64,000 bases of DNA from Escherichia coli (GTDB lineage Bacteria; Pseudomonadota; Gammaproteobacteria; Enterobacterales; Enterobacteriaceae): assembly GCF_003334785.1 (NCBI RefSeq), contig NZ_QOWV01000014.1; one strand, 5' to 3'. The notes beneath the pieces are model-generated. The model was not told where the DNA came from. It was given only the letters and a program-made list of their open reading frames with translations, and did no database searches. This document shows positions 2,777 to 9,352 of the stretch, one piece after another. The position numbers and the translations under genes are program-made. Position 1 is the first letter of the stretch; every line of letters begins with the position of its first letter.

Positions 2777-4825
2777 ATGAGTCGTAAACAACTGGCGCTA
2801 TTCGAACCAACACTTGTCGTTCAGGCGCTGAAAGAAGCGGTGAAAAAATTAAACCCGCAGGCGCAATGGCGCAATCCGGTGATGTTTATCGTCTGGATCG
2901 GCAGTCTGCTGACCACCTGTATTAGCATCGCGATGGCAAGCGGTGCGATGCCCGGCAATGCGCTGTTTAGCGCGGCCATTAGCGGTTGGCTGTGGATCAC
3001 CGTACTGTTCGCTAATTTCGCCGAGGCGCTGGCAGAAGGCCGCAGTAAAGCGCAGGCCAACAGTCTGAAAGGGGTGAAAAAAACTGCCTTTGCCCGCAAG
3101 CTGCGTGAGCCGAAATATGGCGCTGCGGCGGACAAAGTTCCTGCCGACCAACTTCGTAAAGGCGATATCGTACTGGTAGAAGCTGGCGATATTATCCCCT
3201 GCGATGGTGAAGTTATTGAAGGGGGTGCATCGGTCGATGAAAGCGCCATCACCGGGGAATCGGCACCGGTGATCCGTGAATCCGGCGGCGATTTTGCCTC
3301 CGTCACCGGCGGCACGCGTATTCTTTCTGACTGGCTGGTGATTGAGTGTAGCGTTAACCCCGGCGAGACATTTCTGGATCGGATGATCGCGATGGTGGAA
3401 GGCGCACAGCGACGCAAAACGCCGAACGAAATTGCCCTGACCATTCTGCTGATTGCCCTGACTATCGTCTTTTTACTGGCAACCGCCACGCTGTGGCCGT
3501 TTTCCGCGTGGGGCGGTAATGCAGTCAGCGTAACGGTACTGGTGGCGCTGCTGGTCTGTCTGATCCCAACCACTATTGGCGGCCTGTTGTCAGCGATCGG
3601 CGTCGCCGGGATGAGCCGGATGCTAGGCGCGAATGTGATTGCCACCAGCGGACGTGCAGTTGAAGCGGCAGGTGACGTTGACGTTCTGCTACTGGATAAA
3701 ACCGGCACCATCACACTCGGTAACCGTCAGGCGTCGGAGTTTATCCCCGCGCAGGGCGTGGATGAAAAAACGCTGGCTGACGCCGCACAACTGGCTTCGC
3801 TGGCTGATGAAACGCCGGAAGGCCGCAGTATTGTGATCCTCGCCAAGCAGCGTTTTAACCTGCGCGAGCGCGATGTGCAGTCGCTCCATGCCACCTTTGT
3901 ACCGTTTACTGCGCAAAGCCGGATGAGCGGGATCAACATCGACAACCGCATGATCCGTAAAGGTTCTGTCGATGCCATTCGTCGCCATGTTGAGGCTAAC
4001 GGTGGTCACTTCCCTACCGATGTTGATCAAAAAGTCGATCAGGTTGCGCGTCAGGGAGCCACGCCGCTGGTGGTGGTGGAAGGTTCTCGTGTGCTGGGCG
4101 TTATTGCGCTGAAAGATATCGTCAAAGGCGGTATTAAAGAGCGCTTCGCCCAGCTGCGCAAAATGGGCATTAAAACGGTGATGATTACCGGCGATAACCG
4201 TCTGACTGCCGCCGCGATTGCTGCGGAAGCGGGTGTCGATGATTTTCTCGCCGAAGCGACACCGGAGGCCAAGCTGGCATTGATCCGTCAGTATCAGGCG
4301 GAAGGTCGTTTGGTAGCGATGACCGGCGACGGCACCAACGATGCTCCGGCGCTGGCGCAGGCAGATGTCGCGGTGGCGATGAACTCCGGCACCCAGGCGG
4401 CGAAAGAGGCGGGCAATATGGTCGATCTCGACTCTAACCCGACCAAGTTGATCGAGGTGGTGCACATTGGCAAACAGATGCTGATGACCCGTGGCTCGCT
4501 GACCACCTTCAGCATTGCCAACGATGTGGCGAAATACTTCGCCATTATTCCGGCGGCATTCGCGGCAACGTATCCGCAGTTAAATGCGCTGAACATCATG
4601 TGCCTGCATTCGCCCGACTCCGCAATCCTCAGTGCGGTGATTTTCAACGCCTTGATTATCGTCTTTTTGATTCCCCTGGCGTTAAAAGGCGTGAGTTATA
4701 AACCGCTTACCGCTTCTGCCATGTTGCGCCGTAACTTATGGATTTACGGTCTGGGTGGGCTGCTGGTGCCGTTTATCGGTATCAAAGTCATTGATTTACT
4801 GCTGACCGTTTGCGGTCTGGTGTGA
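2777..4825 (+). CDS. kdpB: K+-transporting P-type ATPase catalytic subunit B
   Basis: Track ORF 682 aa, [40 protein letters not shown]...; P-type ATPase motifs DKTGT and GDGTND visible. Confidence 0.95.
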
Positions 4826-4833
4826 GGTTTACC

Positions 4834-5406
4834 ATGAGTGGATTACGTCCGGCATTATCAACATTTATCTTTCTGTTATTGATTACTGGCGGCGTTTACC
4901 CGCTGCTGACCACCGTACTGGGGCAATGGTGGTTTCCCTGGCAGGCCAATGGTTCGTTGATTCGTGAAGGTGATACGGTGCGCGGTTCGGCATTAATCGG
5001 GCAGAATTTTACCGGCAACGGCTATTTTCATGGTCGCCCGTCGGCAACGGCAGAAATGCCCTATAATCCACAGGCTTCTGGCGGGAGCAATCTGGCGGTC
5101 AGTAACCCTGAGCTGGATAAACTAATAGCCGCACGCGTTGCTGCATTACGGGCCGCTAACCCGGATGCCAGCGCGAGCGTTCCGGTTGAACTGGTGACGG
5201 CATCGGCAAGCGGGCTGGACAATAATATCACCCCGCAAGCGGCGGCCTGGCAAATCCCACGCGTGGCGAAAGCGCGTAATCTCAGCGTTGAACAGCTCAC
5301 GCAACTGATCGCAAAATACAGCCAACAACCGCTGGTGAAATATATCGGCCAGCCGGTTGTCAACATTGTTGAACTCAATCTGGCGCTGGATAAACTTGAT
5401 GAATAA
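4834..5406 (+). CDS. kdpC: K+-transporting ATPase subunit C
   Basis: Track ORF 4810..5406 trimmed to ATG 4834 ([27 protein letters not shown]...), 190 aa; 3' end overlaps the kdpD start by 8 nt. Confidence 0.93.
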
Positions 5407-8083
5407 CGAACCCTTACGTCCCGACCCCGATCGTCTGCTGGAACAAACTGCCGCGCCGCATCGGGGGAAGCTGAAAGTTTTCTTCGGTGCCTGTGCAGGC
5501 GTCGGGAAGACCTGGGCGATGCTGGCAGAAGCCCAGCGACTGCGGGCGCAAGGGCTGGATATTGTGGTTGGCGTGGTAGAAACCCACGGGCGAAAAGATA
5601 CCGCCGCCATGCTGGAAGGGCTGGCTGTTCTGCCGTTAAAACGCCAGGCGTACCGTGGGCGGCATATCAGCGAGTTTGATCTCGATGCCGCCCTCGCCCG
5701 CCGCCCGGCGCTGATCTTAATGGACGAACTGGCGCACAGTAATGCGCCAGGTTCCCGTCATCCCAAACGCTGGCAGGATATCGAAGAACTGCTGGAAGCT
5801 GGCATTGATGTTTTCACTACCGTCAACGTTCAGCATCTGGAAAGTCTGAATGATGTGGTCAGCGGCGTCACCGGAATTCAGGTACGGGAAACCGTGCCCG
5901 ATCCTTTTTTCGATGCCGCCGACGACGTGGTGCTGGTGGACTTGCCCCCGGACGATCTGCGCCAGCGGCTGAAAGAAGGCAAAGTCTATATTGCCGGGCA
6001 GGCGGAGCGCGCCATTGAACATTTTTTCCGCAAAGGTAATCTGATCGCCCTGCGCGAACTGGCACTGCGCCGTACTGCCGATCGCGTTGATGAGCAAATG
6101 CGCGCCTGGCGGGGGCATCCTGGCGAAGAGAAAGTGTGGCACACGCGCGACGCGATCCTTTTATGCATCGGCCATAACACCGGCAGCGAAAAACTGGTCC
6201 GCGCAGCGGCGCGGCTGGCGTCACGGCTGGGTAGCGTCTGGCACGCGGTGTATGTTGAAACCCCTGCCCTGCACCGCTTACCGGAAAAAAAACGTCGGGC
6301 AATTCTCAGCGCCTTACGTCTGGCGCAGGAACTGGGCGCGGAGACGGCAACACTTTCTGATCCAGCGGAAGAGAAAGCGGTAGTGCGTTATGCCCGTGAA
6401 CATAATCTCGGCAAGATTATTCTCGGTCGCCCGGCCTCGCGCCGCTGGTGGCGTCGGGAAACGTTTGCTGACCGACTGGCGCGCATCGCCCCCGATCTCG
6501 ATCAGGTGCTGGTCGCGCTTGATGAACCACCCGCCCGCACGATTAACAACGCGCCGGATAACCGCTCTTTTAAAGACAAGTGGCGTGTACAAATTCAGGG
6601 ATGCGTGGTTGCCGCCGCGTTATGCGCCGTTATCACCTTAATTGCCATGCAGTGGCTGATGGCGTTTGATGCCGCCAACCTGGTGATGCTGTATCTGCTT
6701 GGCGTGGTGGTGGTGGCGCTATTTTATGGACGCTGGCCTTCAGTGGTTGCCACCGTCATTAATGTAGTGAGTTTCGATCTCTTTTTTATCGCCCCACGCG
6801 GCACGCTCGCCGTCTCTGATGTGCAATATCTGCTGACCTTCGCGGTGATGTTAACCGTCGGGCTGGTGATCGGGAACCTTACTGCTGGCGTGCGTTATCA
6901 GGCGCGGGTAGCCCGTTACCGCGAGCAACGCACACGGCACTTATATGAAATGTCGAAAGCTCTGGCGGTGGGCCGCAGTCCGCAGGATATCGCTGCCACC
7001 AGCGAACAATTTATTGCCTCCACGTTTCATGCCCGCAGTCAGGTGTTGTTGCCCGATGACAACGGTAAATTGCAGCCGTTAACACATCCGCAAGGAATGA
7101 CGCCGTGGGACGATGCCATCGCGCAGTGGAGTTTTGATAAAGGCCTGCCTGCGGGCGCGGGCACCGACACGTTACCCGGTGTACCGTACCAGATTTTGCC
7201 GCTAAAAAGCGGCGAGAAAACCTACGGGCTGGTGGTGGTGGAGCCGGGGAATCTGCGCCAGTTGATGATCCCGGAACAGCAGCGCCTGCTGGAGACGTTT
7301 ACGCTGTTAGTCGCCAATGCCCTTGAGCGGCTGACGCTAACCGCCAGCGAAGAACAGGCGCGGATGGCAAGCGAACGTGAACAGATCCGCAACGCCCTGC
7401 TGGCGGCGCTTTCGCATGATTTACGCACGCCGCTTACGGTGCTGTTTGGTCAGGCAGAAATCTTAACGCTCGATCTGGCAAGCGAAGGATCACCCCACGC
7501 CCGCCAGGCCAGCGAGATCCGTCAGCATGTGCTGAACACTACCCGACTGGTGAATAATCTACTGGATATGGCGCGAATTCAGTCCGGCGGCTTTAATTTG
7601 AAGAAAGAGTGGTTAACGCTGGAAGAAGTAGTCGGCAGCGCGCTGCAAATGCTGGAACCGGGTTTATCGTCGCCCATCAATCTTTCTCTGCCAGAACCGC
7701 TGACCTTAATCCACGTTGACGGGCCACTCTTTGAACGGGTGCTGATTAATCTGCTGGAGAACGCGGTGAAATATGCGGGTGCGCAGGCCGAAATTGGTAT
7801 CGATGCCCACGTTGAGGGCGAAAATCTACAACTGGATGTCTGGGATAACGGCCCCGGTCTTCCGCCAGGCCAGGAGCAGACGATATTTGATAAGTTTGCT
7901 CGCGGGAATAAAGAGTCGGCAGTACCGGGGGTAGGGCTTGGACTGGCAATTTGTCGGGCGATAGTGGATGTACACGGGGGCACTATTACCGCGTTCAACC
8001 GACCGGAAGGTGGTGCCTGTTTTCGTGTTACACTTCCCCAGCAAACTGCCCCTGAACTTGAAGAATTTCATGAGGATATGTGA
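5399..8083 (+). CDS. kdpD: Sensor histidine kinase KdpD
   Basis: Track ORF 5357..8083 trimmed to ATG 5399 ([38 protein letters not shown]...), 894 aa; histidine-kinase H box (LSHDLRTPL) and ATPase region visible. Confidence 0.95.
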
Positions 8084-8757
8084 CAAACGTTCTGATTGTT
8101 GAAGATGAACAGGCTATTCGTCGCTTTCTGCGCACGGCGCTGGAGGGCGACGGGATGCGCGTCTTTGAGGCCGAAACGCTGCAACGCGGCTTGCTGGAAG
8201 CGGCAACCCGTAAGCCAGATTTGATTATTCTCGATCTCGGCCTGCCCGATGGTGATGGGATTGAGTTTATCCGCGACCTGCGCCAGTGGAGCGCGGTGCC
8301 GGTGATTGTGCTTTCCGCACGCAGCGAAGAGAGCGACAAAATCGCCGCGCTGGATGCCGGAGCGGATGATTATCTGAGTAAGCCGTTTGGCATTGGCGAA
8401 TTGCAGGCCCGTCTGCGCGTCGCATTACGCCGCCACTCTGCCACCACCGCGCCCGATCCGCTGGTAAAATTTTCCGATGTTACCGTCGATTTAGCCGCCC
8501 GCGTGATTCACCGGGGTGAGGAAGAGGTGCATCTCACACCAATTGAGTTCCGCCTGCTGGCGGTGCTGCTCAACAATGCCGGAAAAGTACTCACCCAGCG
8601 CCAGCTCCTTAACCAGGTGTGGGGGCCAAACGCGGTCGAACACAGTCACTATTTGCGTATTTATATGGGACATCTGCGACAAAAACTGGAACAGGATCCC
8701 GCCCGCCCACGCCATTTCATTACTGAAACCGGTATTGGCTATCGGTTTATGCTTTGA
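8080..8757 (+). CDS. kdpE: Response regulator KdpE (OmpR family)
   Basis: Track ORF 225 aa starting GTG 8080 inside the sequence ATGTGA that ends kdpD; [37 protein letters not shown]... Confidence 0.95.
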   Translation: MTNVLIVEDEQAIRRFLRTALEGDGMRVFEAETLQRGLLEAATRKPDLIILDLGLPDGDGIEFIRDLRQWSAVPVIVLSARSEESDKIAALDAGADDYLSKPFGIGELQARLRVALRRHSATTAPDPLVKFSDVTVDLAARVIHRGEEEVHLTPIEFRLLAVLLNNAGKVLTQRQLLNQVWGPNAVEHSHYLRIYMGHLRQKLEQDPARPRHFITETGIGYRFML

Positions 8758-8792
8758 ATATTAATTTTAATACAGCCTGCCTTTTATTAATT

Positions 8793-8822
8793 AAAGCCGT
8801 AATAATAAATACGGCTTTTTAT
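8793..8822 (+). terminator. Intrinsic terminator after kdpE (stem aaagccgt/acggcttt followed by T-run)
   Basis: Inverted repeat 8793..8818 followed by ttttta, read from the sequence. Confidence 0.6.
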
Positions 8823-8990
8823 CTTAAACAACACACAAAAATAACAATTCAATATTTTATATTACTGAGTAAAAAGCTCATCATTAAATAAATTAAGATT
8901 GATCATTTTTTATTGATCACCTTCACAGTTCAACCGTATTTCCTGGATAGAATATCTTCACCTTCATTCACATCAGGAAAGGTAAATTAA

Positions 8991-9095
8991 ATGGAAAATA
9001 ACAGCCGCACTATGCCCCATATAAGGCGGACAACTCATATTATGAAGTTTGCTCATCGCAATAGCTTCGACTTTCACTTCTTCAATGCCCGTTAG
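8991..9095 (+). CDS. speFL: Ornithine-sensing arrest leader peptide of the speF operon (34 aa)
   Basis: Not in the ORF track (too short). ATG 8991 preceded by AGGAAAGG gives MENNSRTMPHIRRTTHIMKFAHRNSFDFHFFNAR, stop TAG 9093..9095; matches the speFL sequence as I recall it. Confidence 0.8.
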   Translation: MENNSRTMPHIRRTTHIMKFAHRNSFDFHFFNAR

Positions 9096-9352
9096 TCTAC
9101 CGACTAAGGGCACTTCAGCGTACAGGTCTTCCTGACTCTCTGTATTACAGGCATATGCCTGTATTCCGCAGTGCTCATTCTCTGTTAACCCTTGTATTAT
9201 CAGCCACCTGACTGGTAAGGGTTTCTGCATTCTGAAAAAAGCAATCTACCTGATTTATTTATCAGCGGGGTAACTTTGCTTTTTTCCGGCACGATCGATT
9301 TCTCATTCGAGAAATTGAGGACCTGCTATTACCTAAAATAAAGAGATGAAAA

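Follow-up and report, generated by a model that had tools for sequence, protein, structure and literature searches.

The speFL leader open reading frame and its structured spacer upstream of speF-potE in an Escherichia coli contig

The interval 8991-9095 of the Escherichia coli DNA analysed here (the window, a stretch of 64,000 nt from contig NZ_QOWV01000014.1) is identified as speFL, the leader open reading frame (ORF) of the speF-potE operon. The 257 nt gap that follows is assigned to the remainder of a structured mRNA leader, and the locus is taken to operate by the published mechanism of ornithine-dependent arrest and Rho termination; the probability of this reading is put at about 0.97. 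Nothing contradicts the speFL identity, and the finding is a correct rediscovery of a known, characterised and annotated gene.

The reading frame, its start signals and the operon genes are positioned as follows.

8948..8960, + strand: putative −10 element TAGAAT (8948-8953) and putative transcription start at about 8960
8975-8982, + strand: speFL Shine-Dalgarno region AGGAAAGG, read directly from the sequence, 8 nt 5′ of the ATG
8991..9095, + strand: speFL coding sequence, 34 codons, with the UAG stop at 9093-9095
9018..9038, + strand: codons 10-16, the HIRRTTH ornithine sensor motif (codon listing; 10.1101/604074)
9353-11551, + strand: speF, 732 aa, inducible ornithine decarboxylase (ORF list, RefSeq)
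11548-12867, + strand: potE, putrescine-ornithine antiporter, overlapping the end of speF (ORF list, RefSeq)

The genes kdpD and kdpE are upstream of speFL, with the end of kdpE at 8757. The speFL frame reads ATG ... CGT TAG and its translation is MENNSRTMPHIRRTTHIMKFAHRNSFDFHFFNAR. A preliminary description made from the sequence had pointed out a 34-codon ORF with a Shine-Dalgarno sequence upstream of speF, and both are present at the positions above; the gap to speF was given there as 258 nt, but the untranslated spacer, 9096..9352, measures 257 nt, as it also does in 10.1101/604074. The same description held that the ORF track misses speFL as a frame of fewer than 60 codons, and the track minimum is indeed 60 aa. 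The gene is nevertheless present in the current curated RefSeq annotation. At the position of the speFL Shine-Dalgarno sequence a purine-rich GGA/AGG block is also found in the 30-species alignment.

The putative transcription start is placed at about 8960 because the mapped start in Salmonella puts the AUG of the corresponding frame, orf34, at +32. The TAGAAT block ends 7 nt before this position and is invariant in a three-way alignment with the second E. coli leader form (described below) and E. albertii. A consensus scan of the speFL leader for a sigma-70 promoter found no match.

Comparison with annotated speFL sequences shows that the peptide is identical at 34 of 34 residues to the chain ‘SpeFL’ of PDB entries 6TBV and 6TC3, and that RefSeq has a CDS, ‘speFL: leader peptide SpeFL’, at exactly 8991-9095. 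Residues 8-33 match the Pfam family PF10940.13, ‘Leader peptide SpeFL’ (DUF2618), with an i-Evalue of 4.6e-05 and a score of 23.6; an NCBIfam HMM scan of the peptide returned no family at E≤1. The counterpart in K-12 MG1655 is b4803, which is likewise flanked by gaps of 233 nt and 257 nt. From the kdpE stop to the speF start (8758-9352) the DNA is identical base-for-base to that of K-12 MG1655, and the 8.5-kb neighbourhood shows 4 base differences from K-12, none of them within the leader. Megablast of 8760-9420 against complete E. coli genomes gave 1709 matching genomes, with the position annotated as speFL. Within the peptide, residues 10-16 are H-I-R-R-T-T-H and conform to the HIRRXXH ornithine-recognition motif, the rare Arg codons AGG and CGG (codons 12-13) are at 9024-9029, and the C-terminal effector residues F20, F26, F28, F30, F31 and N32 are all present. 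The PDB, Pfam and RefSeq matches and the conserved position thus bear out the earlier suggestion that the ORF encodes the ornithine-sensing arrest peptide.

A degenerate DNA scan, in which back-translated HIRRTxHIM was compared with one genome per species from 100,044 species, matched at least 120 loci. A speF homologue (41-100% identity) is found downstream on the same strand in 108 of the 120 loci listed, 9 loci end too soon after the motif for speF to be judged, and 3, from MAGs of Clostridia, Muribaculum and Jorgensenbacteria, have neither an ATG-initiated ORF nor speF. These three fit chance, as about 20 chance matches are estimated from the information content of the pattern. Conservation in relatives that carry speF had been proposed as a check, and the peptide is kept upstream of a speF homologue in 108 of the 108 informative real loci listed, with a gap of 148-381 nt (median 256 nt). 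The real matches listed are from Enterobacterales, Pasteurellaceae, Shewanella and Vibrio. The invariance of HIRRT.HIM itself cannot be used as evidence since the motif was the search pattern; outside the pattern, the listed loci of the 34-codon class all have R23 and F26. Among these loci the commonest codon 12 is AGG (70 of 115) and the commonest codon 13 is CGG (46 of 115). It should be noted that 91 ORFs of at least 25 aa overlap positions 7500-14500, and therefore the length of speFL is unremarkable alone. The case for speFL rests on identity to the solved and annotated peptide and on conservation, not on length.

The region between speFL and speF is strongly structured. The 396-nt leader folds better than all of 100 shuffled sequences (z=−3.15). 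Helices of the E. coli centroid structure were counted on the 30-species alignment, and controls were made by sliding the partners by 1-3 columns. Pairing is kept in 86.3% of cells, compared with 38-52% in the slid controls, and compensatory double changes occur in 22 pairs, compared with 10-15 in the slid controls; since the structure was taken from a single one of the aligned sequences, the comparison with the slid controls is tilted in its favour. Several helices were recovered independently by RNAalifold. The structural elements are listed here.

9086..9112, + strand: pause hairpin, formed by the last codons and the UAG of speFL, found by both MFE and centroid folding; 82-92% of cells paired
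9121..9163, + strand: a pair of short conserved hairpins, 9121-9135 (89% of cells paired) and 9146-9163 (92%)
9187..9223, + strand: covarying helix AACCCTT/AAGGGTT around an inner hairpin at 9200-9211; 6 of 7 outer pairs with compensatory changes
9234..9286, + strand: A-tract/T-tract helix GAAAAAAGCAA...TTGCTTTTTTC, terminator-like, from the fold; paired in 82% of cells
9295..9318, + strand: hairpin TCGATTTCTC/GAGAAATTGA, conserved, with 98% of cells paired; it precedes the speF ATG by about 35 nt

The hairpin at 9146-9163 is a perfect palindrome, TACAGGCATATGCCTGTA, and the helix counted for the 9121-9163 hairpins (helix 5) has 3 pairs with compensatory changes. For the inner hairpin at 9200-9211, RNAalifold gives 11, 15 and 7 double changes. 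The inner hairpin CTGA...TCAG of the A-tract/T-tract helix is invariant across the alignment, and a scan for terminator-like sites matched the leader at 9264-9280 with its T run. In the hairpin nearest to speF, 5 of 10 pairs show compensatory changes. The best-supported helices are those at 9187-9223, 9295-9318 and 9146-9163.

Folding and alignment show a spacer made up of successive covarying hairpins that are conserved, and not unstructured RNA for Rho loading. A search of Rfam with 8700-9500 at E≤1 gave only a chance snoRNA match, of 21.9 bits compared with a gathering score of 60. The six conserved hairpins, present in 30 enterobacterial species, might carry a second regulatory input independent of SpeFL and Rho, but this is doubtful and we give it little weight; candidates for such an input could be the induction of speF at acid pH or a second attenuation step.

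The E. coli leader peptide is the subject of a preprint by Herrero del Valle et al., which was reportedly published later in Nature Microbiology (2020). The speFL sequence studied in that work is identical to that of the window (10.1101/604074). Toeprints with codon 33/34 in the P site were obtained with ornithine and not with putrescine, and cryo-EM shows L-ornithine held between 23S rRNA and the HIRRXXH sensor (residues 10-16) (10.1101/604074). A compacted C-terminal effector domain, which includes Phe26, other aromatic residues and Asn32, displaces U2585 and blocks RF1 at the UAG; mutants show that effector residues are required, and mutations in HIRRXXH also matter (10.1101/604074). Expression of a speF-lacZ fusion carrying speFL and the 257-nt spacer is ornithine-inducible and bicyclomycin-sensitive, the E. 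coli reporter being rendered constitutive by bicyclomycin (10.1101/604074). In the model of these authors the ORF overlaps a predicted rut site, and its 3′ end forms part of a pause hairpin; this hairpin is conserved between Salmonella and E. coli and comes just before the point of Rho-dependent termination, and the rare codons of Arg12-Arg13 are proposed to keep following ribosomes off the rut site (10.1101/604074).

In Salmonella, loss of the orf34 start codon or stops introduced at codons 11 or 26 lower speF transcription by about 100-fold, and bicyclomycin restores speF transcription in the mutants (PMC6386406). The attenuated Salmonella RNA is 157 nt, which puts its end about 21 nt past the orf34 stop (PMC6386406). 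This 3′ end was found by RACE on a transcript that is degraded by PNPase (PMC6386406), and the real termination point could therefore be further downstream. A CU-rich 12-mer at mRNA nt 112-124 was proposed both as the rut site and as an anti-Shine-Dalgarno sequence for the speF ribosome-binding site (RBS); sequestration of that RBS, and a further arginine- and RNase G-dependent layer acting on the orf34 leader, were reported (PMC6386406). It should be noted that the rut site is a prediction in both papers (10.1101/604074; PMC6386406). The suggestion that the arrest peptide masks a Rho loading site, put forward in the preliminary description, agrees with the mechanism published in these two papers.

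At the locus described here the mechanism would run as follows. Without ornithine, the translating ribosome would terminate and depart, and a C-rich, G-poor tract over the 3′ two-thirds of the ORF would be exposed. Rho would load at the core of this tract, a CU tract at 9071-9083, and would halt RNA polymerase paused just beyond the stop-codon hairpin (9086-9112), with a predicted 3′ end at about 9119. By slowing the ribosomes that follow, the rare AGG-CGG codons (9024-9029) may leave the tract fully exposed when the operon is uninduced. With ornithine, stalled and queued ribosomes would cover the tract and melt the hairpin, Rho would be excluded and speF-potE would be transcribed. A ribosome at the speFL stop may also free speF translation, as shown in Salmonella, since the CU tract can pair with the speF RBS at 9341-9351.

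The leader may in addition, or mainly, sense arginine, with pausing at Arg codons 12-13 selecting between downstream folds as was proposed for Salmonella orf34; uninterrupted translation would then lead to an RNase G-sensitive fold in which the speF RBS is occluded. This would be a layer added to SpeFL and not an alternative to it, and we hold it as a tentative possibility at somewhat less than even odds. Arginine repression, RNase G dependence and the effects of Arg-codon mutants have been shown in Salmonella (PMC6386406), AGG-CGG is present here and predominates among the loci listed, and the spacer structure is conserved with covariation. However the K-12-type leader is without the approximately 110 nt that Salmonella has after the equivalent of 9192, so that neither the ‘ring-like’ structure nor the RNase G site (near nt 388-400) can be taken for granted here. 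The rare codons also have another explanation, namely the spacing of ribosomes so that the rut site is exposed (10.1101/604074).

The placement of the Rho loading region was considered from base composition and from the elements mapped onto the leader.

9030..9195, + strand: C-rich, G-poor zone from codon 14 to about +100 of the spacer (base composition, 30 species)
9071..9083, + strand: CU-rich tract CTTTCACTTCTTC, proposed core Rho-binding element and anti-Shine-Dalgarno sequence, placed by correspondence with Salmonella
9109..9120, + strand: match to the pause element G−11 G−10 ... Y−1 G+1 (GGN8YG), consensus from 10.1101/604074 Supplementary Fig. 4
9341..9352, + strand: speF ribosome-binding region AAGAGATGAAAA, directly before the speF ATG at 9353

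In windows of 78 nt, the C/G ratio is 1.83 at 9005-9082 and 1.79 at 9065-9142. A calculation of C/G skew over 9096..9352, which had been proposed as a check on the spacer, gives C 29% and G 19% (C/G 1.53) in the first 100 nt (9096-9195) and C 19% and G 19% (C/G 1.0) in the rest (9196-9352). Across the 30 species, ORF codons 14-34 have means of 26% C and 15% G with C>G in 30/30 species, the first 100 nt of the spacer have means of 31% C and 20% G with C>G in 30/30 species, and the rest of the spacer has means of 18% C and 19% G with C>G in 9/30 species. The lowest G content thus falls in ORF codons 14-34, where both papers place the rut site. The CU tract is 10-24 nt before the stop codon, and the leader has a C-rich, G-poor tract that can be covered by a ribosome at the leader stop, as in a TnaC-like attenuator.

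The duplex between the CU tract and the speF RBS in the window's allele is weak, with a predicted −7.0 kcal/mol and two mismatches. The pairing is kept in 90% of cells over the 30 species without covariation, as both sides are constrained for other reasons; TAAAGAG in the speF RBS is nearly invariant across the 30 species. The pause-element match at 9109-9120 sets the predicted 3′ end at 9119. The strict pause consensus was rejected as a conserved feature, being exact in only 2/30 species, and support for the element is accordingly weak. No terminator-like hairpin with a T run was found by the scan at 9086-9120, the sole such site in the leader being that at 9264-9280.

Rho might instead load mainly in the first approximately 100 nt of the spacer (9096-9195), with the stalled ribosome blocking it indirectly or at the 5′ edge only. 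The composition of this stretch (C/G of 1.53 compared with 1.0 after it, C>G in all 30 species) and the ratio of 1.79 in the window 9065-9142 are in its favour. The 3′ ends of Rho-terminated transcripts are also commonly trimmed back to a hairpin. As PNPase acts on the short Salmonella transcript (PMC6386406), the end of the 157-nt RNA does not strictly fix the termination point. We nevertheless consider loading mainly in the spacer unlikely. Both papers have the predicted rut site overlap the ORF in its 3′ part (10.1101/604074; PMC6386406), the Salmonella end about 21 nt past the stop would leave Rho without spacer RNA, and G is lowest inside the ORF, at 15%. In addition, 9086-9163 holds three conserved hairpins that are 82-92% paired, whereas rut sites are typically unstructured, and a ribosome stalled at the stop covers just about 15 nt downstream. 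The early description of the first part of the spacer as rut-like therefore stands for the C>G bias, which extends to about +100 in 30/30 species, but not for the character of the stretch, which holds conserved covarying hairpins. Base composition is compatible both with a site inside the ORF and with one reaching into the spacer. In our reading, Rho loads in the C-rich zone, whose centre is the 3′ part of the ORF; pausing and termination take place in the first 25 nt of the spacer, and what follows is structured leader. For the early spacer, the terms pause/termination zone and structured leader are more fitting than main Rho loading site.

The mode of selection on the reading frame was assayed with the 25 remaining codons of 81 distinct 34-codon sequences listed, the codons of the search pattern being excluded. 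Synonymous and nonsynonymous differences number 21521:19618 in the speFL frame, and 3547:35290 and 1812:35312 in the two shifted frames; the synonymous share of differing codons is 52% in the speFL frame compared with 9% and 5%. Pairwise diversity at codon positions 1/2/3 is 0.19/0.14/0.40. This substitution pattern is the signature of a translated and constrained SpeFL peptide.

The longest ORF that overlaps the speFL interval is an antisense frame of 85 aa, 8973..9230 on the − strand. That this frame is the true gene is very improbable, since a frame that long is open in only 2/30 species (the longest being mostly 36-60 codons) and it is unannotated in current RefSeq records, including that of K-12 MG1655. 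Least credible of all, and already refuted by the mutants and toeprints of the two papers, is that the speFL ORF is a chance frame in a leader that acts purely as RNA, riboswitch-like or protein-bound: short ORFs are abundant (the 91 noted above in 7 kb) and the spacer is strongly structured (z=−3.15), but coding-type substitutions are confined to the speFL frame, the peptide has been seen in the ribosome tunnel by cryo-EM, published start-codon and stop mutants abolish regulation (PMC6386406), toeprints have been obtained (10.1101/604074), and 8700-9500 has no Rfam match, the family of alphaproteobacterial speF leaders included.

The E. coli genomes carry two forms of this leader. A further 3352 E. 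coli genomes carry a second, diverged form, an example being NZ_CP101274.1; its peptide is MENNNRLMPHIRRTTHIMKFAHRNSFDFHFFNAR and its spacer measures about 310 nt, and in these genomes pgm directly follows potE. In the K-12-type form, a 145-nt copy of the kdpE 3′ end, 90% identical, comes after potE (8614-8758 compared with 12949-13093); this copy is the K-12 pseudogene ybfI. The count of matching genomes (1709/5426) and the 145-nt repeat had prompted the idea that speFL-speF-potE was inserted as a cassette and occurs in just 31% of E. coli; this idea is rejected as stated. The count is low because megablast did not bridge the two diverged forms, and a contiguous ‘empty site’, with kdpE joined directly to the downstream DUF2625 gene, was found in 2 genomes only.

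The longer spacers of relatives have their extra 49-121 nt all after 9192, in the loop of the helix at 9187-9223. Insertions at this point are seen in E. albertii, the second E. coli form, Salmonella, Citrobacter and Kluyvera. IS1 has struck the speFL locus in some strains, and the genome H12, seemingly without the locus, has lost speFL and the 5′ end of speF through a deletion mediated by IS1.

The speFL finding adds no new biology, since RefSeq already annotates the gene, and publications of 2019-2020 describe it together with the ribosome structure and the regulatory logic. Its additions are modest: the covarying structure of the spacer is quantified, the C>G zone is seen to extend beyond the ORF, and two E. 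coli leader forms and one insertion hot spot are described. SpeFL illustrates in textbook fashion how a nascent peptide and a ribosome jointly form a small-molecule sensor, and it ties the availability of ornithine to putrescine synthesis and to acid-stress adaptation in enteric pathogens. The preliminary description shows that a functional gene of 34 codons can be recognised from raw sequence.

Among known systems, speFL of E. coli K-12 (b4803) is the same gene with no difference, its 34-aa peptide, leader DNA and 257-nt spacer being identical. The Salmonella Typhimurium orf34 of Ben-Zvi et al. 2019 (PMC6386406) is an ortholog, with 34 codons, the HIRRT.HIM core, the rare AGG-CGG pair and a position upstream of speF. 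Its Rho-dependent attenuation is likewise lifted by translation, and its CU tract also serves as an anti-Shine-Dalgarno sequence (PMC6386406). The peptide of S. enterica subsp. arizonae, MENNNRFMPHIRRTTHIMMFAHRNSFDFHFFNAR, differs from SpeFL of the window at 3 of 34 positions. A UGA stop codon is reported for orf34 of S. Typhimurium (PMC6386406), compared with UAG here, and the Salmonella spacer is about 378-379 nt, compared with 257 nt here, with about 110 extra nt after the equivalent of 9192. The arginine and RNase G layer is demonstrated in Salmonella only.

The speF RNA motif of Alphaproteobacteria (Rfam) forms a structured, conserved 5′ leader in front of an ornithine decarboxylase gene. 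It differs in being a non-coding RNA that is not known to have a SpeFL-type ORF, and it has no Rfam match in 8700-9500, even at E≤1. The upstream ORFs of eukaryotic ODC, AdoMetDC and antizyme inhibitor likewise put enzymes of the polyamine pathway under the control of a short ORF within a leader that is long and structured, an analogy noted by Ben-Zvi et al. (PMC6386406). However these are unrelated in sequence, operate by translation reinitiation and not by Rho termination, and respond to the polyamine product instead of ornithine.

TnaC, the leader peptide of tnaCAB, has no sequence relationship to SpeFL and is outside PF10940; its ligand is tryptophan, it acts on RF2 at a UGA codon, and its sensor residues and pocket are different. 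The logic is nevertheless the same, in that a free amino acid is sensed in the exit tunnel, the release factor is blocked at the leader's own stop codon, and the stalled ribosome hides a Rho loading site, which leads to read-through into catabolic genes. This comparison between TnaC and SpeFL is drawn explicitly in 10.1101/604074, and also in PMC8429421 and PMC8450073.

Upstream of the speF leader, directly downstream of kdpE, is a hairpin followed by a run of T residues. The kdp operon probably has its intrinsic terminator in this hairpin, which would set the 5′ limit of the speFL promoter region. Its position is listed here with two other features of the speFL region and the RNA genes found elsewhere in the window, the latter being Rfam matches at gathering level.

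Features of the speFL region and RNA genes elsewhere in the window
8793-8818, hairpin and T run directly downstream of kdpE
8973-9230, minus strand, 85-aa open reading frame on the strand opposite speFL, extending over half of the spacer (the speFL-proximal half)
9234-9286, conserved A-tract/T-tract helix, GAAAAAAGCAA...TTGCTTTTTTC, approximately 70 nt upstream of the speF ATG
30312-30354, minus strand, ES036 (CssrF) sRNA (Rfam)
32680-33159, plus strand, five clustered tRNA genes (Rfam)
41550-41712, plus strand, sroC sRNA (Rfam)

The reading frame antisense to speFL is open at its 85-aa length in only two of the 30 related species aligned, and it has no annotation in current RefSeq. The A-tract/T-tract helix has an invariant inner CTGA/TCAG hairpin and looks like a terminator; the published work found on the leader gives it no function.

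SpeFL homologues are also present beyond the Enterobacterales, in Pasteurellaceae (loci L010, L014, L020, L040, L043 and L063), Shewanella (L009 and L050) and Vibrio (L068 and L103). Among the matches listed, these keep the M-x-HIRRTRHIMMP core and have a C terminus 3-9 residues longer, i.e., they are 37-43 residues in length when numbered from the position-1 equivalent. Thus the stop codon lies away from the position of arrest in E. coli SpeFL. The arrest point may be different in these three groups. In Kluyvera genomosp. 3 (locus L079, CP022114.1) the motif is found without a surrounding ATG-initiated open reading frame, and the match to speF downstream does not begin until residue 130; speFL-speF may have decayed at this locus.

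Within E. coli the locus is broken by IS1 in some genomes, at 3098-5639 of locus L002 (NZ_AP027759.1) and in NZ_AP022177.1 (H1). In one disrupted strain IS1B stands in place of speFL together with the 5′ part of speF, and a speF pseudogene remains, and another strain has IS1A inside the kdpE-speF interval.

The window also carries a direct repeat of 145 nt with 90% identity, at 8614-8758 and 12949-13093. The downstream repeat is a second copy of the kdpE 3′ end, found just downstream of potE, and corresponds to a truncated winged-HTH pseudogene in RefSeq and to ybfI (b4636) in K-12. The downstream DUF2625 gene directly adjoins kdpE in only 2 of 5426 complete E. coli genomes, and this junction looks like a deletion between the two repeats.

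The E. coli kdpE-speF intergenic region, together with the speFL leader, exists in two diverged forms (window 8758-9352; example locus L123, 7301-8057). The K-12-type leader, present in 1709 of the 5426 genomes, has a spacer of 257 nt and a peptide with ...NNSRTM..., and ybfI-ybfG-ybfP separate potE from pgm. The second type, present in 3352, has a spacer of approximately 310 nt and a peptide with ...NNNRLM..., and potE is followed directly by pgm. RefSeq places a coding sequence for a 44-aa “hypothetical protein” over the speFL start, in a different frame, in genomes with the second form (L123, 7462-7596); this is probably an annotation artefact.

The spacer has a single insertion hot spot, at window position 9192/9193, where lineage-specific DNA of 49-121 nt is found in E. 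albertii, Salmonella, Citrobacter, Kluyvera and the second E. coli form, always within the loop of a covarying helix (9187-9223). The second E. coli form is similar to E. albertii.
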